64,000 bases of DNA from an uncultured Acidobacteriota bacterium (GTDB lineage: Bacteria > Acidobacteriota > Vicinamibacteria > Vicinamibacterales > JAHECP01). The translations under genes and the position numbers were made by a program. The stretch spans positions 32,405 through 96,404 of the forward strand of contig CAWEUE010000005.1 of assembly GCA_963812185.1 (NCBI GenBank). The letters are read 5' to 3'. The notes beneath the pieces are model-generated. The model searched no databases. It had not been told where the DNA came from and worked only from the letters and a program-made list of their open reading frames with translations. This document shows, in pieces, positions 2,777 to 47,467 of the stretch (positions within the stretch are counted from its first letter, which is position 1; each line of letters starts with the position of its first letter).

Positions 2777-5700
2777 GTGACCAAGCTCTTCCGCTGGATC
2801 TGGCCGCATCGGGCACCGCCGGCGGACAACCCGCTGCGCGACGAGCTGCTCAGCATCGAACGATTGGAGGAGCGCGCCAAAGCGCTGGCCGCCAGCTTCA
2901 TCGTCGATCCGCGGCGCCGCGCGCGCGACATCTTCCCCCGGTTCGAGGACAACGGCCGCGTCCTGCGCAGGGCGTATCGGACCCTGGCCGACGATGTGCG
3001 GCGCGGGGAGTTCATCACCGCCGCGTCGGAGTGGCTGCTCGACAACTTCTACCTGGTCACGTCCGAAATCAGGGACATCCGTCAGAACCTCCCGCGGACC
3101 TACTACCGCTCGCTGCCGACGCTCGCGCCGCGCGAGCAGGCGGGACACGCGCGGGTCTACGCGATCGCCATCGAGCTCATCCGCCACAGCGACAGCCGGC
3201 TGGACCGTCACGGGCTCACGCACTTCCTCGACAGCTATCAGCGCATCGCGCCGCTGACGATCGGGGAGCTCTGGGCCTGGCCGAGCATGCTGAAGCTGGC
3301 GCTCATCGAGAACCTGAGACGACTGGCCGACCAGACGCTGCGGGCCCGCGCCGCGCGGCGGGCCGCCGACGCCGACGTGTCGCGGATGGAGGGGCGGGCA
3401 CGCGGCCGGGCGCCGGTGCTGCCGCCCGTTCTCCATCCCGCGTACGTCGTTCAGCTGCTTCACCGCATGCGCGAATACGGTCCGCGTCTGTTGCCGTTGC
3501 ACCGCGCCGTCGAGGCGCACCTGGCTTCCCTGCAGACGACCACCGAGGACGCGGTGCGGGAAGAGAACCAGCGCGAGGCGGCCGCCCAGGTGTCGGTGGC
3601 CAACGTCGTCGCCAGCCTTCGCCTGTGCTCGACGCTCGACTGGGGGAAGTACTTCGAGGCGGTGAGCCTCGTCGAGCAGGTGCTGCAGCGCGATCCCGCG
3701 GGCGTGTACGGGCGCATGGACTTCCTGAGCCGGGACCGCCTGCGCCAGGCGGTGGAGAGCATGGCCGCGCCCGACGGCGACGCCCAGATCCGGGTCGCGC
3801 TGAAGGCGGTCGAGAACGCCCGCGAGCGGGCCGTGGACGGCTCGACCGCCGACCGCGCCGCTCACGTGGGCTACCACCTGATCGATCTGGGGCGCCGCGA
3901 CCTCGAAGCCGACGTCGCGTATCGTCCTCCTCTCGCCGGGCGCCTGCGCCGTCTCGCGTTCGCCCATGCGACCGCCGTCTACCTTGGAGCGATCGGGCTC
4001 CTGACGACGCTGCTGGTCGCCGCCGGTGTCTGGTACCTCCGGCGCGGCGGCGGGTCCCTCCCCGCGCAGGTCGCCGCGGCGCTGCTCCTCTTGCTGCCCG
4101 CGAGTGAAGTCGCGGTCTCATTCGTCCAACGTCTGGCGGCGCGTCTGGCGCCGCCGAGACGCCTGCCGCGCCTCGAGTTCGCCGGCCGGATTCCCGAGAC
4201 CGCACGCACCATGGTGATCGTGCCGACGATGCTGACGAGCGTCCAGGCCGTGGAGGCGCTCGTCGAGCATCTCGAGGTGCTCGCGCTCGGGAACCTGGAC
4301 CCGTGCATTCACTTCGCGATCCTCAGCGACTTCACCGACGCCGCCCTCCGCGACGTTCCCGGGGACGCCGCCATCCTCTCGGCCGCCCGCGCCGGCGTCG
4401 AGGCCCTCAATGCGCGGTTCGGCCCCGAGCACGCCGACCGTTTCTATCTCTTCCATCGCGCCCGGCGGTGGAACGACCGCGAACAGGCGTGGATGGGCTG
4501 GGAGCGCAAGCGCGGCAAGATCGAGGAATTCAACCGTCTGCTGCGCGGCGCGACGGACACGAGCTTCGCCGTGCAGGTCGGGCAGCGCGACATCCTGCCC
4601 ACCGTGCGCTACTGCATCACGCTCGATTCCGACACCCGCCTGCCGCGGGACGCGGCGAAGAAGCTCATCGGCATCATCGAGCACCCGTTGAACCGCCCGC
4701 AGGTCGATCGACGGCTCGGCCGCGTGACGGAGGGCTACGGCATCCTGCAGCCCCGCGTCAGCGTGACGATGGCGAGCGCGGCGGGCTCGCTCTTCGCCCG
4801 AACCTACGCCGGACATACCGGCGTGGATCCGTACACCACCGCCGTGTCGGACGTCTACCAGGATCTCTTCGAGCGAAGGCATCTTCACCGGCAAGGGCCT
4901 CTACGACGTGGACGCGTTCATCGCCGCCCTCGAGGGTCGGGTGCCCGAGAACGCGCTGCTGTCGCACGACCTGTTCGAGGGGATCTACGCGCGCACCGCG
5001 CTCGTCAGCGACGTCGAAGTGGTGGATGACTACCCGTCGAGCGTCCTCGCCCACGCGAGACGCCAGCACCGCTGGGTGCGCGGCGACTGGCAGATCCTGT
5101 GGTGGCTGTGGCCCTTCGTCCCGACCCGCGCGGGCATCGAGCGCAACCGGTTGCCGCTCATCTCGCGCTGGAAGATCCTCGACAACCTGCGGCGAAGCCT
5201 GCTGGCGCCGGCGACCGCCGCCCTGCTCCTGCTCGGGTGGACCGTGCTTCCGGGGCGCGCGGCGGCCTGGACGGCGATCGGCCTCGCGGCGATCGCCTTT
5301 CCCCTCCTCTCGCGGGCGCTGGAGACGCTCGGTGGTCCGGGCCGGGACCAGGCCTGGTCCGTGTTCCTGCGGGCCGCCGCCGACGACCTGAGGACCGCCG
5401 CCGCGCAAGCGGCCCTGCAGCTCGCGTTCATGGCCAATCAGGCGTACCAGATGCTGCACGCGATCGGCATCACGCTCGTGCGCCTCGGGATCACCCAGCA
5501 CGGGCTCCTGGAGTGGGAGACCGCGGCGGCGAGCGCCACCCGGGGCGGACCGCCCGACCTGCGCCTGTTCCTGAGGGGCATGATGGCGAGCCCGTCCATC
5601 GCCCTCGCCGGTCTCGTCCTGGTGTCGCTGGCCCAGCCGCGCGCGCTGCCCGTGGCGCTCCCCGTCCTGGCCCTGTGGGCGGCCGCGCCGTTCATCGCGT

Positions 5701-20744: not shown

Positions 20745-20924
20745 CGGCGCCACGACACGCGCGAGTCGCCGACGCCGAGGGACGCGTGGAGTTCGAGGAC
20801 GATCCTTTACAAGGCCGCTGCCGGCGGCCGCGCCATGGCGGTCCTGACCGAGTGAGACCTCTATCAGGGCCTCGATTTCCGGCGGATTCTCGACTCGATG
20901 GAGCAGCCCGCGTTCGTGTTCGAT
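20745..20924 (+). pseudogene. orphan 3' fragment of a UDP-glucose dehydrogenase paralog
   Basis: About 180 nt align by eye to 22213-22392 of the intact ugd ([13 protein letters not shown]...[16 protein letters not shown]), with an indel and an in-frame TGA. Homology ends abruptly at 20924, where the hairpin repeat begins. Confidence 0.7.
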
Positions 20925-20925
20925 A

Positions 20926-20990
20926 AGGTGTGCGCTACGAAAGAGCAGGTGACGTGGCGCAGGGCTTCAGCCCTGCGCCGTGAGGGCGCA
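20926..20990. repeat. degenerate single copy of the 72-bp triple-hairpin repeat unit
   Basis: AAGGTGTGCGCTACGAAAGAGCAGGTGACGTGGCGCAGGGCTTCAGCCCTGCGCCGTGAGGGCGCA aligns with GGTCTGCGCTACGTACGGAAGATGGTACGTAGCGCAGGGCTTCAGCCCTGCGTCGTGCGGCGCA at 42.2-42.4 kb. Confidence 0.65.
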
Positions 20991-21099
20991 CACCTCGGTG
21001 CCCGCGCCACGCGAGGAGGGCTGGGTCGGGCGACGTTCGTCCTCTTGTGGCGGCACGGTGAGTGTGTTAAGAGGAGAGAGCCTTCGAGCCCGATCGCCC

Positions 21100-22477
21100 A
21101 TGAGTCACGCACTGCGAATCCTCTGCATCGGCGCCGGCTACGTCGGGGGACCCACCATGGCGGTGATCGCCGATCGCTGTCCCCACATCCGGGTCACAGT
21201 GACCGACGTCAACCACCAGCGGATCGAGGCGTGGAACAGCGACGCCCTGCCCATCTACGAGCCGGGCCTGGACGCGGTCGTGCGCCGGGCGCGGGGGCGC
21301 AATCTCTTCTTCTCGACCGACGTCGCGACCGGCATCCGGGAGGCCGACGTGATCTTCGTGTCGGTCAACACGCCGACCAAGTCCTTCGGGGAGGGGGCCG
21401 GCCGCGCGGCCGATCTGCAGGTACTGGGAGAAGACGGCGCGCGAGATCGTCGCGCACGCGGATGCGGGCAAGATCGTCGTCGAGAAGTCGACGCTGCCGG
21501 TCCGGACCGCGGCCGCGATGACGCGCATTCTGGCGTCGAACCGCAAGGGCCTCGAGTTCCAGATCCTGTCGAATCCGGAGTTCCTCGCCGAGGGCACGGC
21601 CATCCGCGACCTCGAGGAGCCCGACCGGGTGCTGATCGGCTCGGAGGAGACCGCCGCCGGCCTCGAGGCCCGCCGCACGCTGGTCGAGCTCTACGCGACC
21701 TGGGTCCCGCGTGACCGGATCATCGAGTCCAGCGTCTGGAGCGCGGAGCTGTCGAAGCTGACGGCCAACGCGTTCCTCGCGCAGCGGATCTCGTCGATCA
21801 ACGCGATCTCCGCGCTGTGCGAGCAGGCCGGCGCCGACGTGGCGGAAGTCGCCCACGCGATCGGCACCGACTCGCGGATCGGACCGAAGTTCCTCAGGGC
21901 GAGCGTCGGCTTCGGCGGGTCGTGCTTCAAGAAGGACATCCTGAACCTGGTGTACATCGCGCAGGGCTACGGCCTGCAGGAGGTTGCCGACTACTGGGAA
22001 TCCGTCATCCGCATGAACGAGTGGCAGCAGGCCCGCTTCGTCCGCACCATGGTGGCCAGCATGTTCAACACGGTGGCGGGTAAGCGCATCGCGCTGTTCG
22101 GCGTCGCGTTCAAGGCCGACACCAGCGACACGCGCGAGTCGCCGGCGCTGGCGGTGGCGCGCGGGCTGCTCGCCGAGCACGCCCGCGTCGTGATCACCGA
22201 TCCCAGGGCGCTCCCGACGGCACGCGTGGATCTCGCCGACGCCAAGGGACGCGTCGAGTTCGAGGACGATCCCTACAAGGCCGCTGCCGGCGCCCACGCC
22301 ATTGCGGTCCTGACCGAGTGGGGCCTCTATCGGGGCCTCGACTTCCGGCGGATTCTCGACTCGATGGAGCAGCCCGCGTTCGTGTTCGATGGGCGCAACG
22401 TCCTCGATCACGCGGCGCTCTTCGAGATGGGGTTCAACGTATTCCCCGTCGGCCAGGCGCCGCTCCGGCACGTCTGA
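21100..22477 (+). CDS. ugd: UDP-glucose 6-dehydrogenase (eukaryote-like UGDH type); +1 frameshift at 21421
   Basis: [35 protein letters not shown] | [19 protein letters not shown] and [14 protein letters not shown] are present. Confidence 0.88.
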
Positions 22478-22497: not shown

Positions 22498-22797
22498 CTA
22501 CCCGCCGGCAATCGCGCCGATGATCAGGAAGGGCTCGCGGCCGCTCGCCACCTCGTCCGGCAGCGGCGCGTCCGGCGGGTCGTGCGAGACGTCCTGGGAA
22601 CAGGCGAAGTAACGCACGAACGGCCGGCGGCGCAGGGAGACGTGATCGCGGATCGTGCCCTGCAGCACGGGGTAGCGCGCCTCCAGCGCGTCGAGGATCG
22701 CGCGCGGCGTCGCGGCGCCTTCCACCTCGACCGCGACCTCGCCGTTCACCCGCACCAGCGTCTTCAGGTGCGCCGGCAGCTCCACACGGATGGTCAT
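22498..22797 (-). CDS. MoaD/ThiS-family ubiquitin-like protein ending in Gly-Gly
   Basis: 99 aa with a C-terminal ...IIGAIAGG*. The length and GG terminus fit sulfur-carrier / Ubl proteins. Confidence 0.7.
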   Translation of the reverse strand: MTIRVELPAHLKTLVRVNGEVAVEVEGAATPRAILDALEARYPVLQGTIRDHVSLRRRPFVRYFACSQDVSHDPPDAPLPDEVASGREPFLIIGAIAGG

Positions 22798-22819
22798 GGT
22801 GTAACTCTGTCAGTCGTCA

Positions 22820-22929
22820 GTTGTGAGTTGTGAGTCATGAGTTATGAGTTGTGAGTTCTGAGTTATGAGCGACTCAGGACTCAGAACTCAGAACTCACGA
22901 CTCGGAACTCAAGACTCAAGACTCACAAC
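22820..22929. repeat. palindromic heptamer array: 7 x GTTNTGA, centre gcgac, 8 x TCANNAC
   Basis: Read directly from the sequence. It is markedly AT-richer than its surroundings and fills most of the 141-nt gap between two co-oriented genes. It places TGA in all three frames on both strands. Confidence 0.85.
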
Positions 22930-37264: not shown

Positions 37265-37290
37265 GCCCCGGGGGCTGGAGGGTCGTCAGC

Positions 37291-37306
37291 GCCGGCTGAA
37301 GCCGGC
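37291..37306. terminator. hairpin GCCGGC-TGAA-GCCGGC followed by CCCTAC
   Basis: It lies between convergent 3' ends. The TGAA loop and CTAC tail resemble the 72-bp repeat hairpins. Confidence 0.35.
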
Positions 37307-37329
37307 CCCTACACCCGACTACACTCGAC

Positions 37330-39801: not shown

Positions 39802-40443
39802 TCACGACAACCCCGGTAGGCGTCCCTCGGCTGGCGCCGTGAGGCCGGCCGCGCAAAACGTCACCAGCTCCTGGAGGAGCGCTTCGCCCCGCGGCGCGTC
39901 GAAGCGCCCGCGGGCCATCAGCTCGAGGTCGGAGTAGTTGGTCAGGGTGAGGATGAGGGCGCCGAGCATGAAGTGGGCGCGGCTGATGATCTGCGGGCCG
40001 GAGAGCCCGGCGGGCAGGGCGCGCTTGATGGCGTCCGAGAACCGGGGCAGCACGCTCTCGAACAGCTCGATGAACACCTGGCGCTGGGCCGGCGTGTAGG
40101 CGACGTGCATCTGTCCGAGCAGACGCGCGAAGTCCGGGTGCTCGCTCAGCAGATCGATCGCCGGCGCGAAGAACGCGCGGAGCACCGGCTCGATCGGCGG
40201 CCCGGCGGGGCCGGCCGCGGCTTCGATCTGGTCGAGCCGCCGCAGGCGTTCCGCGTTGAGCGGCTCCGTCCGCCGCCGCAGCACGTCGCGGATCAGGCCG
40301 TCGCGGCTGCCGAAGTAGTAGTGGGCCAGGGCGACGTTGGCGCCGGCCTCGGCGAGGACCGCGCGCACCGAAACCCCGTCGACGCCGCGGGCGGCGAACA
40401 GCCGCTCGGCCGAATCGAGGATGGCCGTCTTCGTGTCCGTCAT
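39802..40443 (-). CDS. TetR/AcrR family transcriptional regulator
   Basis: ILDSAERLFAARGVDGVSVRAVLAEAGANVALAHYYFGSRDGL. Confidence 0.88.
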   Translation of the reverse strand: MTDTKTAILDSAERLFAARGVDGVSVRAVLAEAGANVALAHYYFGSRDGLIRDVLRRRTEPLNAERLRRLDQIEAAAGPAGPPIEPVLRAFFAPAIDLLSEHPDFARLLGQMHVAYTPAQRQVFIELFESVLPRFSDAIKRALPAGLSGPQIISRAHFMLGALILTLTNYSDLELMARGRFDAPRGEALLQELVTFCAAGLTAPAEGRLPGLS

Positions 40444-40490
40444 CTCGTGAAGGTCCCGTGGATTTCCAGCGTGCCCATGCTCATATTAAA

Positions 40491-40506
40491 TTAATCAATT
40501 GATTAA
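40491..40506. promoter_or_regulatory. perfect 16-bp palindrome TTAATCAATTGATTAA, candidate TetR operator
   Basis: It is the only AT-rich patch in the TetR / GNAT divergent intergenic region. Confidence 0.6.
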
Positions 40507-40591
40507 TAGAAATCAAGCCCAAAGTCCGCCTTGTGGGAGGAGGGCGCTTCGCCTACGATCCCGGGGCCTCGGACCAAGGAGGGAACCGAAC

Positions 40592-40993
40592 GTGGTCACC
40601 TACCAACTCGAACCGGCTCTGGATGTCGACGAGTTCGTCGACGTGCTCGTCCGTTCCACCCTCGCCGAACGGCGCCCGGTCGATCGGCGGGACATCATCG
40701 CCGGCATGCTCGCGCGAGCCGACATCATCCTGACGGCCAGGATCGGCCCGGAGCTGGCAGGTGTGTCGCGCGCGCTCACCGACTTCAGCTACTGCACGTA
40801 CCTGTCGGATCTGGCCGTGGATCGCGCGCACCAGGGAAAGGGCATCGGGCGGGAGCTGGTCCGGCGGACGCACGAGGCCGCCGGGCTGCACACGTACCTG
40901 CTCCTGCTGGCCGCCCCCGCCGCGCGCACCTACTACCCGCACATCGGCATGCAGCCGCACGACTCGGCGTGGATCATTCCCCGCCGGCCGTAA
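40592..40993 (+). CDS. GNAT family N-acetyltransferase
   Basis: The GTG start follows an [28 protein letters not shown] (acetyl-CoA motif A) is present. Confidence 0.75.
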
Positions 40994-41023
40994 GGGCGCG
41001 ACGCCGGACCGGACGGTCCCTGC

Positions 41024-41290
41024 TTGACTCTCCTGAACAGGGCAGGGCATATCTTCGGTCACCCCCCCGAGATCGGCGGGCACACCGACAACGTGGAGAC
41101 GCCGGCCTACAACCAGACGCTGTCCGAGAAGCGCGCCGCGGCGGTCAAGGACTGGCTGGTCGCGCACGGCGTGGCGGCGTCGCGCCTGACCTCGCGCGGC
41201 TACGGCGAGACCCGGGCCGACTTCGGCATGGAGATCCTCGGACCGCCCCTTCCGCCGAGCCCGCGTGACACCAGAACGACGCTGGTGTAA
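41024..41290 (+). pseudogene. OmpA_C-like domain fragment lacking its N-terminal part
   Basis: Only IGGHTDNVETPAYNQTLSEKRAAAVKDWLVAHGVAASRLTSRGYGETR is recognisable. There is no preceding domain or signal peptide, and the C-terminal end is degenerate. Confidence 0.5.
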
Positions 41291-41383
41291 ACTGCGCGAG
41301 CTTTTCCCGGCCCCACAGCTCAACCAGCCACACGGAGGAACGCTCGAGGCTTGCTCGAGCTCGGCAAGGAGGAGGGTGTGTCG

Positions 41384-42025
41384 ATGAGCCCCAACGGACG
41401 TCACGGTTCGGCGAACCTTCGGGAAATCCTGTGCCGCCGCCTGCTGGCGGCGGCGTCCCTGGCGGTGGCGGCGGCGGTTGCCGCGTGCGGTCAGCCCGCG
41501 CCCCCGGCCGCGTCGGTGGCCTCGTCGGCGCCCGCCCAGTCCCAGATCGAGCGCGGCCGCGTGCTCGTGGTCGCCGGCGGCTGCCACGACTGCCACTCAC
41601 CCAAGAAGATGGGCCCGAACGGACCGGAGCCCGACATGAGCCGGATGCTCTCGGGCCATCCCGAGGGAGAAGCCGTCCCGGCTCCTTACCAGCCGGCGCC
41701 GGGCAGCCCGTGGGTCGTGGCGACGACCGCCGACCTCACGGCGTGGAGCGGGCCGTGGGGCGTCTCGTTCCCGGCGAATCTCACGCCCGACCCGAACACG
41801 GGTCTGCGCAGCGGCGTGTGGACGGAGGAGCTCTTCATCAAGGCGCTCAGGACCGGCAAGCACATGGGCACCGCGCGCGACATCCTGCCGCCGATGCCCT
41901 GGCAGCTCTACAGCCAGCTGAGCGACGATGATCTCAAGGCCATCTGGGCGTACCTGGGCAGCATCCCGCCCATCGCCAACCACGTGCCGGACCCGATTCC
42001 GCCCGCCGCGGCGCCCGCGAAGTGA
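41384..42025 (+). CDS. c-type cytochrome lipoprotein (single CHDCH haem site)
   Basis: AAGGAGGAGGG RBS, lipobox-like AAVAAC, GGCHDCHSPK, and a C-terminal PPMPW...LKAIWAYL. Confidence 0.75.
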   Translation: MSPNGRHGSANLREILCRRLLAAASLAVAAAVAACGQPAPPAASVASSAPAQSQIERGRVLVVAGGCHDCHSPKKMGPNGPEPDMSRMLSGHPEGEAVPAPYQPAPGSPWVVATTADLTAWSGPWGVSFPANLTPDPNTGLRSGVWTEELFIKALRTGKHMGTARDILPPMPWQLYSQLSDDDLKAIWAYLGSIPPIANHVPDPIPPAAAPAK

Positions 42026-42073
42026 CGCCCGGCGGGACGCCCGCGTGGCGTCCCACCTGGGTCTGTGATACGA

Positions 42074-42175
42074 GCCTACCTGCCGCTGCCGGCCGCGTCG
42101 GCCGCGCGCGGCTACTACCCGTACGTCGGCATGCAGCCGCACGACTCGGCGTGGATCATCCCCCGGCGGCCGTAG
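42074..42175 (+). pseudogene. orphan 3' fragment of a GNAT paralog
   Basis: It encodes ...[32 protein letters not shown], compared with the intact gene end ...[32 protein letters not shown] at 40993. Confidence 0.7.
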
Positions 42176-42204
42176 CAGGGTCAGCGCCGGGCCGCCGCCT
42201 CGAA

Positions 42205-42419
42205 GGGCTTGAGCCCTGCGCCGTGCGGCGCAGACCTGAAGGTCTGCGCTACGTACGGAAGATGGTACGTAGCGCAGGGCTTCAGCCCTGCGTCGTGCGG
42301 CGCAGACCTGAAGGTCTGCGCTACGTACGGAAGATGGTACGTAGCGCAGGGCTTCAGCCCTGCGTCGTGCGGCGCAGACCTGAAGGTCTGCGCTACGTAC
42401 GGAAGATGGTCTGCGCTAC
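42205..42419. repeat. tandem array of a 72-bp unit (2 full copies + 62 nt + restart), each unit made of three perfect hairpins
   Basis: Units run 42205-42276, 42277-42348 and 42349-42410. The three hairpins are CGCAGGGC-TTCA-GCCCTGCG, GCGCAGACC-TGAA-GGTCTGCGC and CTACGTAC-GGAAGATG-GTACGTAG. The acylase stop codon (42416-42418) lies inside the last partial unit. Confidence 0.9.
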
Positions 42420-44845
42420 TTCTCCGGCTGCAGGTCCAGCCGCAACTCGGTGACCGACTCGACCTTGCCCCGGCTGAAGAAGATCGGGAAGTAGCGGCCG
42501 CGCGACCAGAGCCGATAGAGGTCGCGGTAGTGCGGGTCGTTCACGTCGCCCGACTGCCCCGGGTTGTTGAGCCCGACGGAGTTGTCCCAGTCGCTCGCGT
42601 CCGCGATGATCTTGAACGACCCGCCGGAGCGCTGGTTGTCGGTGCTGCCCGTGGCGTCGATGGTGTAGCTGTCACCGCTGCGCGGCTCGTGGCCGACGTC
42701 GTATTTCGCGCGTTGGTCCGCGTTCAGGGCGGGGCTCAGCGGGTGATGGATGAGCGCGCGATGGTACGCGCCGAGCGTCCACTTCGCCGGGTCCGGCCCG
42801 AACCGCTTCGTCAGCTCGTCCACGCTCTCGACGAGGCTCCGCTCCAGCAGCGCGTCCCGCCCGGCCGTCGGGTCGTCGCCGAACCGGCCGTCGGGCGCCT
42901 GCATCCAGCCGATGACCTTGGTGAGGCCGGGCGTCCCGATGAAGGCCCGCGCCTTCTCCGGCACCACCACGTCTCTCACGTCCGCCTGGAGGTGGCGCTG
43001 CCACTGCTCGTAGATGCCGGCCGCCACCGAGTCCTTGTCGAGCACGTCGTCCCAGTCGAGCAGGCGCCGGCGCGCGTCCTCGGCGCGCGCGTCCTTCATC
43101 GGCAGGTCGCGCAGGAGCGGCACCAGCGACCGCGCGGGGATCGACAGCACGTCGTTCTGCAGCTGCACCATGTCCGCCACGGTGAAGCGCCGGCCCGACC
43201 CCAGCACCTCGGCGACGCGCGACGCGCGGAACGCATCGGCCCAGAGATAGTGCATGGCCGCCGGATACGGATAGTCCGGCGGCATCAGGTATTCATTGGA
43301 CGTGTTCCAGAAACCCTGGGCCGGATTGACGACGTGGGGGAGCGCCTCGATGGGGAGGTAGCCGTCCCACTCGTAGCGGCCGTCGCCCGGCACCGGGACC
43401 AGCCCGCTCCAGTGGCGGCGCAGCGGCTCGATGCCGACGGCCTGGTAGCCGATCGTGCCGTCCACGCCGGCCCACACCATGTTCTCGGCGGGGATCCGGC
43501 TGTAGCTGCAGGCGTCGCGGAATTCCTTCCAGTCGCGCGCCTGGTCCATGCGCAGGCTCGCCAGGTACGGCGCCGATCCAATCTCCATCCACGCGGCGCG
43601 CACGGCGTACGCCTTGTGGTGCGCCGTGTCCTCGTAGATCACGGGCCCGTGGCGCGTGTACTTCAGGTCCACCGTCGCCGGCGCCCGCCCCTTCACCGCG
43701 ATCGTGTCCTTGACGACGCGCATCGGCTCCCACGCGCCCTGGTACCTGTACTCGAGCGGGTTGGCGGGGTTCGTGTCGTAGACGTACAGGTCCTCGTTGT
43801 CGTTGCCGAAGACCGTCAGCCCCCACGCGCCGTACTGGTTGTGGCCGATCGACACGCCCGGCAGCGCCGGCTCGCCGCCGCCGATCACGTCCCAGCCCGG
43901 CGCGACGAGGTGCACCCAGTAGCGCAGCGACGGCACCTGCTGCACGCGATGCGGGTCGTTCGCCATCATGGGCAGGCGGCTGGCCGTGCGGCGGCCGGCG
44001 ACGATCCAGTTGTTGCTCCCGATGTCGCGCCGCGCCGCGCGCGGGTCCGCCGCCCAGGCGCCGCTCGCTTCGTCCAGCCGCGCGACCGCGCCGGCGCCTC
44101 CTCTGTACTGCGGCGCGAGCTCGTCCGGCGTGAACCGGATCGGCCGGCGGAAGGCGTTGTAGAGGTCGAGGACGTGGTTCGTGAGCAGGCCGGCGTCGAT
44201 CGCCGGGTCCAGGTCCAGCACGGGGTTCGGCGGCTGGAAGTGCTCGAGGTCCTTCACGCCGTCGGCGCCGAGCAGGTCGACCGCCCGCGCCATCGGGATC
44301 TCCTCGGTGACGTTCTCGAGCAGGCCGTTGAAGCGCGAAATCACGACGGCGGGCGTCCAGTGGCCCGGCGTGACGCCGAGCATGGCGAACTCGGGCGTCA
44401 GCAGGCTCGGGTCCTTCCGCGTGCGGTCGATGTAGGCGTTGATGCCGTCGACGAACGCGCCGACGATCGCCGCGCCGCGCGGGTGGTACCAGGCCAGTTC
44501 CTGCGCGAGGTCGCCGCGGAACATGAAGAGGCGCGTGCCCCGGTCGCGCTCGATCTCGGCCGGCCCGAGGATCTCGGCCACGGTGCCCGTCGCCTGGCGC
44601 CGCCACAGCTCGAGCTGGAACAGGCGGTCGCGCGCCACGTTGTAGCCCTGGGCGAAGAACAGGTCGTGCTCGCTCTTCGCGTAGATGTGCGAGACGCCCC
44701 AGCGGTCCTTCAGGATCTCGACGGGCTGCTCGAGGCCGGCCGCCTGCAGCGTCTGCGACGCGGGCGGCGCGGGCGCCGCGGCCGACAGCGGGACGAGCGT
44801 GACGGCCAGCGCGAGGAACCGGCAGGTGAGCTTCGTGATTCGCAT
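42416..44845 (-). CDS. penicillin acylase family (Ntn hydrolase, S45) protein, secreted
   Basis: It has a signal peptide, RDRLFQLELWRR, and GSNNWIVAGRRT (nucleophile Ser). It is intact over 809 aa. Confidence 0.85.
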   Translation of the reverse strand: MRITKLTCRFLALAVTLVPLSAAAPAPPASQTLQAAGLEQPVEILKDRWGVSHIYAKSEHDLFFAQGYNVARDRLFQLELWRRQATGTVAEILGPAEIERDRGTRLFMFRGDLAQELAWYHPRGAAIVGAFVDGINAYIDRTRKDPSLLTPEFAMLGVTPGHWTPAVVISRFNGLLENVTEEIPMARAVDLLGADGVKDLEHFQPPNPVLDLDPAIDAGLLTNHVLDLYNAFRRPIRFTPDELAPQYRGGAGAVARLDEASGAWAADPRAARRDIGSNNWIVAGRRTASRLPMMANDPHRVQQVPSLRYWVHLVAPGWDVIGGGEPALPGVSIGHNQYGAWGLTVFGNDNEDLYVYDTNPANPLEYRYQGAWEPMRVVKDTIAVKGRAPATVDLKYTRHGPVIYEDTAHHKAYAVRAAWMEIGSAPYLASLRMDQARDWKEFRDACSYSRIPAENMVWAGVDGTIGYQAVGIEPLRRHWSGLVPVPGDGRYEWDGYLPIEALPHVVNPAQGFWNTSNEYLMPPDYPYPAAMHYLWADAFRASRVAEVLGSGRRFTVADMVQLQNDVLSIPARSLVPLLRDLPMKDARAEDARRRLLDWDDVLDKDSVAAGIYEQWQRHLQADVRDVVVPEKARAFIGTPGLTKVIGWMQAPDGRFGDDPTAGRDALLERSLVESVDELTKRFGPDPAKWTLGAYHRALIHHPLSPALNADQRAKYDVGHEPRSGDSYTIDATGSTDNQRSGGSFKIIADASDWDNSVGLNNPGQSGDVNDPHYRDLYRLWSRGRYFPIFFSRGKVESVTELRLDLQPEK

Positions 44846-47368: not shown

Positions 47369-47407
47369 CCAGGGTCGGGTGGCCCAGGTCTCCGACCAGG
47401 GCCGCTC

Positions 47408-47432
47408 TGGCACAGGTCAGAGACCTGTGCCA
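47408..47432. repeat. perfect 11-bp hairpin TGGCACAGGTC-aga-GACCTGTGCCA
   Basis: It lies between the transglutaminase-like stop and the ABC ATPase start, with no U-tract. Confidence 0.5.
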
Positions 47433-47467
47433 CCGGAAGGCGGCGTATGGGGTGGGAACCCCTTGAC

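Follow-up and report, generated by a model that had tools for sequence, protein, structure and literature searches.

The hairpin array at positions 42201-42419 of the window, by which we mean the whole 64-kb stretch of DNA under analysis, is very probably a BIME/REPIN-type cluster of GTAG-tagged REPs in alternating orientation that is linked to RAYT transposases. It is most like E. coli BIME-2; the kind of element is well known, and the present case is a new one from a soil acidobacterial lineage. A first-pass annotation of the same DNA had proposed a REP-like family that might be a non-autonomous mobile element, and this core idea was right.

The array consists of about three copies of a 72-nt tandem repeat. 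TRF reported a period of 72 for 42204-42410 (2.9 copies, 98% matches, score 400), while a repeat search returned three in-register 72-nt copies over 42201-42416 with identities of 100, 96 and 89%. Each unit is composed of REP-A (24 nt), a spacer of 8 nt, an inverted REP-B (24 nt) and a spacer of 16 nt. Both REPs combine GTAG with a perfect 8-bp stem and a TTCA loop (REP-A: GTAGCGCAGGGCTTCAGCCCTGCG; REP-B: GTAGCGCAGACCTTCAGGTCTGCG). The five perfect tagged REPs of the array follow the orientation string -+-+- with spacers fixed at 8 nt or 16 nt, and all five full copies carry GTAG while the copy at 20.9 kb carries GTGG. The REP pattern GTAGCGCAGNNNTTCANNNCTGCG was matched six times in the 64-kb window, with 0.07 matches expected. 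Units 2 and 3 are identical and unit 1 differs at three positions. The array opens with a degenerate REP-A, and its last partial unit has a distinct truncated end, closing with the tagged half-REP GGTCTGCGCTAC. The individual features are as follows.

42201-42419, no strand assigned: whole BIME-like REP cluster of about three 72-nt units (TRF, repeat search, folding, REP pattern)
42201-42220, plus strand: degenerate first REP-A, CGAAGGGCTTGAGCCCTGCG, without a GTAG tag and with a TTGA loop (sequence reading, repeat search)
42229-42252, minus strand: REP-B copy 1, GTAGCGCAGACCTTCAGGTCTGCG (REP pattern)
42253-42268, no strand assigned: spacer GTACGGAAGATGGTAC between facing tags, repeated at 42325-42340 (sequence reading)
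42269-42292, plus strand: REP-A copy, GTAGCGCAGGGCTTCAGCCCTGCG (REP pattern)
42301-42324, minus strand: REP-B copy 2 (REP pattern)
42341-42364, plus strand: REP-A copy (REP pattern)
42373-42396, minus strand: REP-B copy 3 (REP pattern)
42408-42419, minus strand: terminal tagged half-REP, GTAG plus CGCAGACC, without a partner arm (sequence reading)

The hairpins within a unit are not equivalent. When folded as single-stranded DNA, REP-A and REP-B reached -10.3 and -9.0 kcal/mol, respectively, and the third hairpin only -5.6 kcal/mol. This third structure arises from the 16-nt spacer GTACGGAAGATGGTAC plus the CTAC and GTAG tags on either side of it and is only a by-product, namely the junction of two facing GTAC-GTAG tags. 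The "three hairpins" per unit of the first-pass annotation are wrong; each unit is an inverted doublet of two GTAG-tagged REPs. The tandem 72-bp repeat noted there was borne out, with the array starting at 42201 instead of 42205, the first REP-A being degenerate and the last partial unit ending in a tagged half-REP. The array strand folds far more stably than shuffled sequences (z = -12.8, 0 of 200 shuffles equally stable). A REP-A/REP-B doublet is predicted to form a single hairpin of -22.9 kcal/mol (z = -6.5) as compared with about -19.3 kcal/mol for two separate hairpins, and the RNA minimum-free-energy fold of the array likewise contains long inter-REP helices. The make-up is not that of a CRISPR array, for the repeating block is the entire 72 nt and the spacers do not vary from unit to unit.

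Identical neighbouring units in a type of repeat that is error-prone in assembly, as seen for units 2 and 3, could also result from the collapse or expansion of one REP doublet during assembly. However, the three differences of unit 1 and the distinct truncated end of the last unit do not follow the pattern of a simple mis-expansion, and comparable alternating tandem arrays are present in independent assemblies (at least four units at locus L016, five REPs at locus L107). An assembly artefact is therefore extremely unlikely.

Far from being unique to this locus, the REP was matched in more than 103 genome loci among the matches listed, with 70 of 103 belonging to Acidobacteriota, mainly Vicinamibacterales. 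Together with the named homologues of the acylase described below, this distribution places the window in Acidobacteriota, probably Vicinamibacterales. Related genomes contribute repeatedly, with at least five 8-kb loci each in the OZ252227.1, CBDANB and CAXXNN assemblies among the matches listed. The REP hairpin is under selection, with compensatory changes maintaining the stem; the free stem triplets are perfectly complementary in 98 of 115 matches, across more than 10 stem variants. Over all loci, 212 tagged elements with a perfect 8-bp stem and a 4-nt loop were collected, 190 carrying GTAG and 22 GTGG. Close doublets are heterodimers in 68 of 69 cases, as is the A/B doublet of the array. 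Further, either orientation of the REP is found, its gene contexts are numerous and unrelated, and it brackets transposase genes. In Desulfacinum, the REP is embedded in a conserved repeat that is longer, at about 130 nt. An argument about the folding strand, based on raw counts of G·T versus A·C mismatches (39 versus 9), was dropped when the asymmetry was gone on unique sequences (10 versus 12, p = 0.83).

Covarying stems would also be in line with a structured non-coding RNA or a cis-regulatory RNA motif that acts as RNA, for example a relative of Rfam Acido-Lenti-1 or sbcD. Sub-threshold matches to both models were obtained (Acido-Lenti-1, RF01687: 24.8 bits, gathering score 37; sbcD, RF01757: 29.6-32.0 bits, gathering score 40), and the consensus of Acido-Lenti-1, which is found in Acidobacteria, likewise shows a hairpin of 8 bp, closed by a 4-nt loop, with GCUA behind it. 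The match to this model is, however, limited to its hairpin half (hairpin plus CUA), the tails differ (CUAA-like versus CTAC), and no Rfam match at gathering level was returned for the window or for 10 related loci. The presence of the REP in both orientations and varied gene contexts and its bracketing of transposase genes are what a DNA repeat would show, as opposed to a dedicated RNA gene, which makes an RNA motif a very unlikely explanation.

The link to RAYT transposases was established through related genomes. In an acidobacterial genome (locus L067), a Y1 transposase gene is preceded by three REPs identical to REP-A and followed by two inverted REPs. The encoded protein matches Pfam Y1_Tnp with 34 bits (gathering score 23) and, with one frameshift repaired, NCBIfam REP_Tyr_transpos with 95.4 bits (cutoff 80); among solved structures, E. 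coli TnpA-REP is its best relative (4ER8, E = 3e-7). The frameshift could indicate a pseudogene or a nanopore error. More than 500 RAYT relatives were found in metagenomes among the matches listed. For 80 metagenomic relatives of this RAYT, a GTAG hairpin was detected upstream in 54 of 74 and downstream in 53 of 73, and bracketing on both sides with GTAG pointing outward was observed for 44 of 67 relatives as opposed to 1 of 133 distal control windows. The loops of these flanking hairpins are TTCA (67) or TTTA (54), and at loci L105, L106, L108 and L178 the CGCAG-stem REPs themselves are present. Judging from sequence, REPs of the form GTAG, 8-9 bp perfect stem and TTCA or TTTA loop are likely the cognate substrates of a clade of RAYT/TnpA-REP enzymes (HUH-Y1), a clade that is abundant in soil Acidobacteriota. 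The first-pass annotation had suggested looking for a RAYT-type transposase elsewhere in the genome; within the 64-kb window no RAYT gene was found, and the search was positive in related genomes. At locus L107, eight 23-nt half-REP units lie directly 3' of a RAYT gene. The RAYT at locus L053, although genuine (107.8 bits), was rejected as the cognate enzyme, its closest flank being an unrelated GGGG-type inverted repeat that resembles the acidobacterial "TIRYTs" of PMC3733652; not every nearby REP is cognate.

A small, repeated, palindrome-rich and non-coding element could alternatively be a MITE, as the first-pass annotation had also proposed, i.e. a deletion derivative of an insertion sequence with a DDE transposase that is mobilised via terminal inverted repeats with target-site duplication, and the longer repeat in Desulfacinum would suit such an origin. 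However, no terminal inverted repeats were seen beyond the palindromes, and reading the sequence around the array (left ...GCCGCCT, right TTCTCC...) and around the 20.9 kb unit revealed no target-site duplication. What repeats is the 24-nt tagged palindrome itself, and the associated enzyme is an HUH-Y1 RAYT rather than a DDE transposase, so that we consider a MITE to be highly implausible.

The cluster lies between two convergent genes and reaches into the second of them, in agreement with the first-pass annotation.

41351-42025, plus strand: cytochrome c gene, convergent with the acylase gene, its stop 176 nt from the array (profile match)
42416-44845, minus strand: penicillin-amidase-family acylase gene, its 3' end abutting the array (PF01804, 657 bits)

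The acylase stop codon, TAG at 42416-42418, is located inside the last CTAC/GTAG tag of the array, that of the terminal half-REP. A REP element thus now supplies the stop codon of this gene. No REP follows the acylase gene in the four closest orthologous loci (80-92% identity), and the array marks a point of gene-order difference from the closest relative. All REP copies in the window lie outside genes or at their 3' ends. The idea that the array truncated the acylase was considered, given the longer, AAA-rich tails of the closest orthologues (80-92% identity). Homologues of about 71% identity, however, end in ...LEPGK and ...LEPEKKE before the stop codon; the tail varies naturally and truncation by the array is therefore not established. 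The stretch at 42026-42176, previously taken for the 3' fragment of a GNAT gene, gave no Pfam match and no tblastn match to the GNAT gene neighbouring an orthologous acylase; a GNAT fragment is not supported here.

Position between convergent genes, together with very stable, G+C-rich hairpins, would be expected of a non-mobile stack of bidirectional intrinsic terminators that had evolved at this site for these two genes. A terminator scan of 42201-42419 on both strands nevertheless yielded no terminator-like site, and no T/U run follows any of the hairpins on either strand, so that the terminator stack of the first-pass annotation is not of the classical intrinsic type. In addition, copies of the identical 24-mer are scattered across more than 100 loci in many genomes, and orthologous acylase loci exist without the array. 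We consequently give very little weight to a terminator that evolved in place. A secondary effect of the array on termination or mRNA stability is possible and compatible with a RAYT-linked REP cluster.

E. coli BIME-2 clusters are built from alternating Y and Z2 REPs that are reiterated in tandem. The acidobacterial array shares with them the two REP variants, the alternating inverted orientation, two fixed spacer types, the head-to-tail arrangement of doublets, the extragenic location at gene 3' ends and the GTAG tag. It differs in its unrelated sequence, in its acidobacterial host and in its perfect 8-bp stems with a conserved TTCA loop (group 3 style) compared with the bulged stems of E. 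coli (group 2). Host proteins known as BIME ligands are DNA gyrase, IHF and Pol I. The definition of BIMEs is cited in PMC2817692 and PMC6006769.

With respect to sequence format, the family falls into the superfamily of GTAG REPs (Di Nocera et al. 2013, PMC3733652), for which 24 family consensus sequences are given, which includes S. maltophilia SMAG and which is characterized by stems of 5-13 bp, tandem-reiterated dimers and a location mostly downstream of ORFs. Shared features are the terminal GTAG, sometimes GTGG, stem lengths (8-9 bp in our family) within this range, a short loop, complementary stem changes, doublets with GTAG outside or inside, clusters of tandem dimers and the association with RAYTs. 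An extra GTAC in front of GTAG, a recurrent 5' extension common in the family of the array (30 of 308), sets it apart. The statement that no described repeat family could be recognised holds, at most, for the particular sequence variant, CGCAG-NNN-TTCA, and not for the kind of element, since GTAG REPs (PMC3733652) and REPtrons (PMC6006769) have been described. The GTAG/CTAC tag, which places the element in a described superfamily, was missed in the first-pass annotation.

In group 3 REPs, the stems are perfect and the enzyme reads the loop sequence-specifically; in Marinomonas the REP loop is TTTA, and cleavage and strand transfer were assayed in vitro (PMC8266576). Perfect palindromes with a short, sequence-conserved loop are common to our family and the group 3 REPtrons of S. 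maltophilia and Marinomonas MWYL1 (Corneloup et al. 2021, PMC8266576); the loop is TTTA in Marinomonas and TTCA or TTTA here, and in both cases inverted REPs stand on either side of the RAYT gene. The RAYT at L067, on the other hand, is only remotely similar to characterised enzymes such as 4ER8. As in REPINs (Bertels and Rainey, as cited in PMC6006769), two inverted REPs and a short spacer form one long hairpin, and by analogy the REP doublet is presumably the replicative unit. Unlike in REPINs, the two halves are almost always different stem variants, giving a long hairpin with internal mismatches, and the doublet is not only dispersed but also amplified locally in tandem.

Work on REPs, BIMEs and RAYT transposases has dealt almost exclusively with Proteobacteria. 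Acidobacteria appear in PMC6006769 only with class 3 enzymes and CnGA feet, and in PMC3733652 only with "TIRYT" genes flanked by unrelated terminal inverted repeats. The array and its related loci represent a canonical GTAG REP/RAYT system in soil Acidobacteriota. The large number of RAYT relatives noted above, combined with one simple REP format, offers a large natural data set on the co-evolution of RAYT/REP specificity. For genome annotation, the REP assignment accounts for a class of hairpin arrays between genes that might be misread as sRNAs or terminators.

The history of the array may be envisioned as follows. REP doublets would have been seeded at the convergent intergenic site via RAYT-catalysed single-strand cleavage and rejoining, and the 72-nt unit would then have been amplified by slipped-strand or unequal recombination, probably recently, since units 2 and 3 are identical. 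In the last unit, 50 nt were likely lost between GGT microhomologies. The resulting stack of stable hairpins would form part of the 3' UTR of the cytochrome c and acylase transcripts alike. In other systems, REPs shield mRNA 3' ends or hinder read-through, and a comparable RNA-level role may be assumed here.

Overall, REP density in the window is low, with four REP loci in total, and the effects are local, consisting of the supplied stop codon and of copies at rearrangement junctions. Apart from the array, the following features were identified.

20808-20924, plus strand: truncated ugd duplicate, an orphan 3' fragment whose frame contains a TGA at 20853-20855 (comparison with intact ugd)
20926-20994, plus strand: solo diverged unit (alignment, folding)
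37289-37312, minus strand: single REP-format element GTAGGGGCCGGCTTCAGCCGGCGC, 18 nt past the stop of a PEP-utilising-enzyme gene
47379-47433, no strand assigned: inverted doublet of GTGG-tagged palindromes with 3-nt loops, between transglutaminase-like and ABC ATPase genes

The diverged copy that the first-pass annotation had noted at 20926 extends to 20994 and aligns end to end with one permuted unit of the array. Its order is REP-B' 3' arm with CTAC, spacer, GTGG-tagged REP-A, spacer and REP-B' 5' arm; the two outer arms form a stem around REP-A (fold of -27.2 kcal/mol), and a compensatory CAG/CTG to CAC/GTG change is present. The adjacent ugd 3' fragment, likewise recognised earlier, is 87% identical to an intact ugd gene over 39 aa, and the ugd homology stops exactly at the start of the REP unit.

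Tandem arrays and half-REP runs might instead be direct products of RAYT activity and not of passive replication slippage, with the enzyme carrying out repeated cleavage and strand transfer or a rolling-circle-like copying of a small single-stranded circle. This is hinted at by the 20.9 kb solo unit, a circular permutation bounded by two REP-B hairpin halves, by the tagged half-REP at the end of the main array and by the half-REP run next to the RAYT gene at L107. We view such an origin as improbable; if true, loci of this type would record the mechanism of REP spread. Permuted solo units bounded by half-REPs were dismissed as a recurrent form, as only 3 of 76 orphan tagged arms have a complementary arm on the 5' side and all three are explained by neighbouring REPs, leaving the 20.9 kb unit as a single case.

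Two further hairpins had been pointed out in the first-pass annotation. The one at 37.3 kb is the REP-format element at 37289-37312, and the one at 47408-47432 is real and makes up half of the inverted doublet at 47379-47433, which is either a diverged relative of the family or a second family.

The array at window positions 42201-42419 is a BIME-like tandem cluster of GTAG-tagged repetitive extragenic palindrome (REP) doublets, and the REP family in this window is associated with REP-associated tyrosine transposases (RAYTs, or TnpA-REP; HUH-Y1 type) and widespread in soil Acidobacteriota. The tandem 72-bp repeat described in the first-pass annotation is real, with TRF yielding a period of 72, 2.9 copies and 98% matches, while a repeat search returned three in-register 72-nt copies with identities of 100, 96 and 89%, units 2 and 3 being identical. 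Folding, which the annotation had suggested as a check, showed the array strand to be much more stable than shuffled sequences (z = -12.8). The annotation's three hairpins per unit gave way to two inverted REPs, arranged as follows.

Components of the 72-nt unit and ends of the array
REP-A, + strand, 24 nt: GTAG-CGCAGGGC-TTCA-GCCCTGCG
Spacer between REP-A and REP-B, 8 nt: TCGTGCGG
REP-B, - strand, 24 nt: GTAG-CGCAGACC-TTCA-GGTCTGCG, ending in ...CTAC when read on the + strand
Second spacer of the unit, 16 nt: GTACGGAAGATGGTAC
42201-42220: first REP-A copy, degenerate and without tag
42408-42419: terminal tagged half-REP at the end of the array, GGTCTGCGCTAC

REP-A and REP-B are one element, apart from compensated change in three stem pairs, and the generalised pattern GTAGCGCAGNNNTTCANNNCTGCG matched the window six times compared with 0.07 matches expected. 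The supposed third hairpin (CTACGTAC...GTACGTAG) consists of the facing tags of neighbouring REPs, each preceded by GTAC; as single-stranded DNA it is far weaker (-5.6 kcal/mol) than the two REPs (-10.3 and -9.0 kcal/mol). For the REP-A/REP-B doublet, a single long hairpin was preferred (-22.9 kcal/mol). The array end may derive from a fourth unit by a 50-nt deletion between two microhomologous GGT sites (GATGGT/ACGTAG... versus GAAGGT/CTGCGC).

A scan with the generalised REP pattern, in which each species was represented by a single genome, identified at least 103 loci. Among the loci listed, 70 of 103 were from Acidobacteriota, including 34 from Vicinamibacterales or Vicinamibacteria, and 19 from Desulfacinum, the remaining few being mostly chance matches without a palindrome. 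The unspecified stem triplets were perfectly complementary in 98 of the 115 listed matches, compared with ca. 1/64 by chance, and more than 10 stem variants were found among them; the REP hairpin is under selection. Many listed copies had another palindrome, in inverted orientation and with CTAC at its end, no more than a few bases further on. The collected locus sequence (1.03 Mb) contained 570 elements of REP format, some single, some in doublets and others in clusters with as many as 7 members. Nearly all close doublets with GTAG outside were heterodimers (68/69), as is the A/B pair in the window, and GTAC was the commonest 4-mer just 5' of GTAG (30/308, in 16 loci; ca. 1.2 expected). A strand-specific wobble asymmetry in the stems disappeared once only unique sequences were counted. 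Alternating tandem arrays like that of the window were found at the comparison loci L016 (at least 4 units, period ca. 73) and L107. An assembly artefact as the source of the tandem copies is unlikely because the first and last units of the array are non-identical and similar arrays occur in independent assemblies.

In the Desulfacinum loci (L007, L010, L013, L027 and 15 others), the same 24-nt REP, GTAGCGCAGCCCTTCAGGGCTGCG, forms the central part of a longer repeat of ca. 130 nt that is conserved on either side of the REP as well. The whole may represent a MITE-like or composite element with the REP at its core. In low-GC Flavobacteriales MAGs (L023:3276-3299, L047:707-730 and 2536-2559), a conserved CAGAGCCGTAGGCTCGACTTTATT motif, which by itself forms a small GTAG-loop hairpin, stands before the same REP core, GTAGCGCAGGA[CT]TTCA.... 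The occurrence of this REP across several phyla is a hint of horizontal spread.

Following the first-pass proposal of a RAYT search, all ORFs of the window and the comparison loci were screened, with an E. coli TnpA-REP sequence as lead query. No RAYT gene was found within the 64-kb window; a REP-bracketed one was present in a related genome. The screen first yielded L053 and then, by iteration, L067, a locus from an uncultured Acidobacteriota genome (5.35-Mb contig) and a textbook REPtron, i.e. a RAYT gene bracketed by inverted REPs. Three copies of GTAGCGCAGGGCTT[C/T]AGCCCTGCG precede its Y1-transposase gene, those with a TTCA loop being identical to REP-A of the window, and two inverted copies ending in CTAC follow directly downstream. 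For Pfam Y1_Tnp (gathering score 23), the gene reached 34 bits. Repairing one frameshift joined the HUH motif (PDHVHLL) to the YILANPVRAGL motif, and the repaired protein, at 95.4 bits, exceeded the cutoff of 80 for the NCBIfam equivalog REP_Tyr_transpos. Among solved structures, E. coli TnpA-REP (4ER8, E = 3e-7) was its best relative.

A metagenome scan with the L067 protein identified at least 547 relatives, and flanks were scored for the best 80 (41-53% identity). A GTAG hairpin was located within 300 nt upstream on the + strand in 54/74 cases and within 300 nt downstream on the - strand in 53/73; 44 of 67 relatives were bracketed on both sides with GTAG outward, compared with such a hairpin in 1 of 133 distal control windows. 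Stems of these hairpins were 8-9 bp long with no gap after the tag, and loops were TTCA (67) or TTTA (54). Further, the CGCAG-stem REPs themselves were present in L105, L106, L108 and L178, the last including a near-copy of REP-B. Taken with the flank survey, this indicates that the window REPs match exactly, in format, the REPs cognate to this RAYT clade. The L053 RAYT is genuine (NCBIfam, 107.8 bits). Its closest flank is a 38-nt inverted pair of GGGG type, GGGGTGGCCCATCCTTTGCGGCACGCAAAGGGTGGGGC (L053:4322-4362 and 4929-4970), matching the GGGGWSAS-type TIRs of acidobacterial "TIRYTs" (PMC3733652), and GTAG-CGCAG REPs lie further out inside a longer repeated stretch; this RAYT was left out of the evidence for the window's family. 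At L107 (1990-2170; also 1229-1446), eight tandem 23-nt half-REP copies (spacer GATACGA, 3' arm GCCCTGGG, then CCAC, GTAC) lie directly 3' of a RAYT gene, and upstream of the same gene is an alternating array of 91-nt period with GTGG-tagged REPs and the same GTAC extension. Tagged half-REP runs also occur in L002, L088 and L176.

Anatomy, distribution, covariation and RAYT association are those defining GTAG REPs and BIME/REPIN clusters. The closest analogue of the array is the E. coli BIME-2 cluster, and the closest formal class is the GTAG REP superfamily (PMC3733652), with perfect stems in group 3 style (PMC8266576). For Vicinamibacterales-type Acidobacteriota, a canonical REPtron system of the GTAG type appears to be undescribed, although its kind is known, since the text of the surveys consulted brings up Acidobacteria only with atypical systems (PMC3733652, PMC6006769). 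TnpA-REP enzymes bind the folded GTAG strand, recognising the tetranucleotide and, in group 3 systems, where stems are perfect, also the loop sequence; they cut at CT or CA dinucleotides on the 5' or 3' side of the REP, and in Marinomonas the REP loop reads TTTA (PMC8266576). The near-invariant TTCA/TTTA loop of the acidobacterial REPs fits this loop-reading mode.

The genes next to the array and the remaining REP copies of the window are listed below.

Genes flanking the array and other REP copies
41351-42025, + strand: cytochrome c gene, convergent with the acylase gene, array between them
42416-44845, - strand: penicillin-amidase-family acylase gene (PF01804, 657 bits)
20926-20994, + strand: solo diverged unit
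37289-37312: REP copy, intergenic
47379-47433: GTGG doublet, intergenic

The convergent arrangement and the overlap with the acylase stop noted in the first pass were confirmed, the TAG (42416-42418) falling within the last GTAG tag, while a GNAT fragment beside the array was unsupported. The REP following the acylase gene is absent from the four closest orthologues (L184-L187; 92, 81, 81 and 80% identity), nucleotide homology to these loci ending directly after ...CAGCCG, five bases before the tag. Gene order in L184, the closest relative, is acylase, a 578-aa gene and TetR. TetR is conserved in the window (39820-40443, 92% identity), and in place of the 578-aa gene, window 40444-42200 (counterpart L184:2463-4375) holds the cytochrome c gene, a 347-aa ORF and the REP array, which thus lies at the edge of a replaced segment. 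We make no claim of acylase truncation by the array: at ca. 71% identity, homologues end in ...LEPGK* and ...LEPEKKE*, so the tail is naturally variable.

REP doublets may have been seeded at this site through RAYT-mediated single-strand cleavage and joining, and the 72-nt unit, as suggested by the identical units 2 and 3, would then have been amplified via slippage or unequal exchange. Both transcripts of the convergent pair would now carry the hairpin stack in their 3' UTRs. Judging from enterobacterial REPs, the stack could shield the 3' ends of mRNAs, impede read-through or influence the termination of translation, the latter being possible because the first hairpin starts ca. 20 nt after the stop codon. 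No T-run was found 3' of the array hairpins, and a terminator scan of the array gave no match. No Rfam family reached its gathering score (Acido-Lenti-1, 24.8 versus 37; sbcD, 29.6-32 versus 40). The Acido-Lenti-1 consensus (RF01687; compared at window 42262-42292), an 8-bp hairpin with a 4-nt loop and GCUA, has tagged-REP architecture, and this Rfam "sRNA" could in fact be a DNA repeat of REP type.

The solo unit at 20.9 kb aligns end-to-end with the array unit in permuted form: a REP-B variant 3' arm with CTAC, a spacer, a GTGG-tagged REP-A, a spacer and the REP-B variant 5' arm. Its outer arms pair together (-27.2 kcal/mol) and carry a compensatory change relative to those of the main array. 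The ugd 3' fragment reported beside it was verified: immediately to the left of the unit, 39 codons (20808-20924), with an in-frame TGA in place of a Trp codon, match residues 253-291 of the intact UDP-glucose dehydrogenase, encoded ca. 1.5 kb downstream, at 87% identity. Homology stops exactly at the start of the unit, placing this REP copy at a duplication or rearrangement junction. Permuted solo units were not recurrent. An unlikely reading is that RAYT chemistry directly left the half-REP runs and permuted units as its footprints. In the ugd gene (window ca. 21100-22477), the N-terminal part and the central and C-terminal domains lie in different reading frames, which points to a frameshift or sequencing error near 21.5 kb. 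At window 22808-22929, heptamer tandem repeats, (GAGTTNT)n facing (ANAACTC)n, make up a long, imperfect inverted repeat with arms of ca. 60 nt; it is intergenic, AT-richer than the genome and lies a short distance upstream of the start of a minus-strand ORF near 22797.
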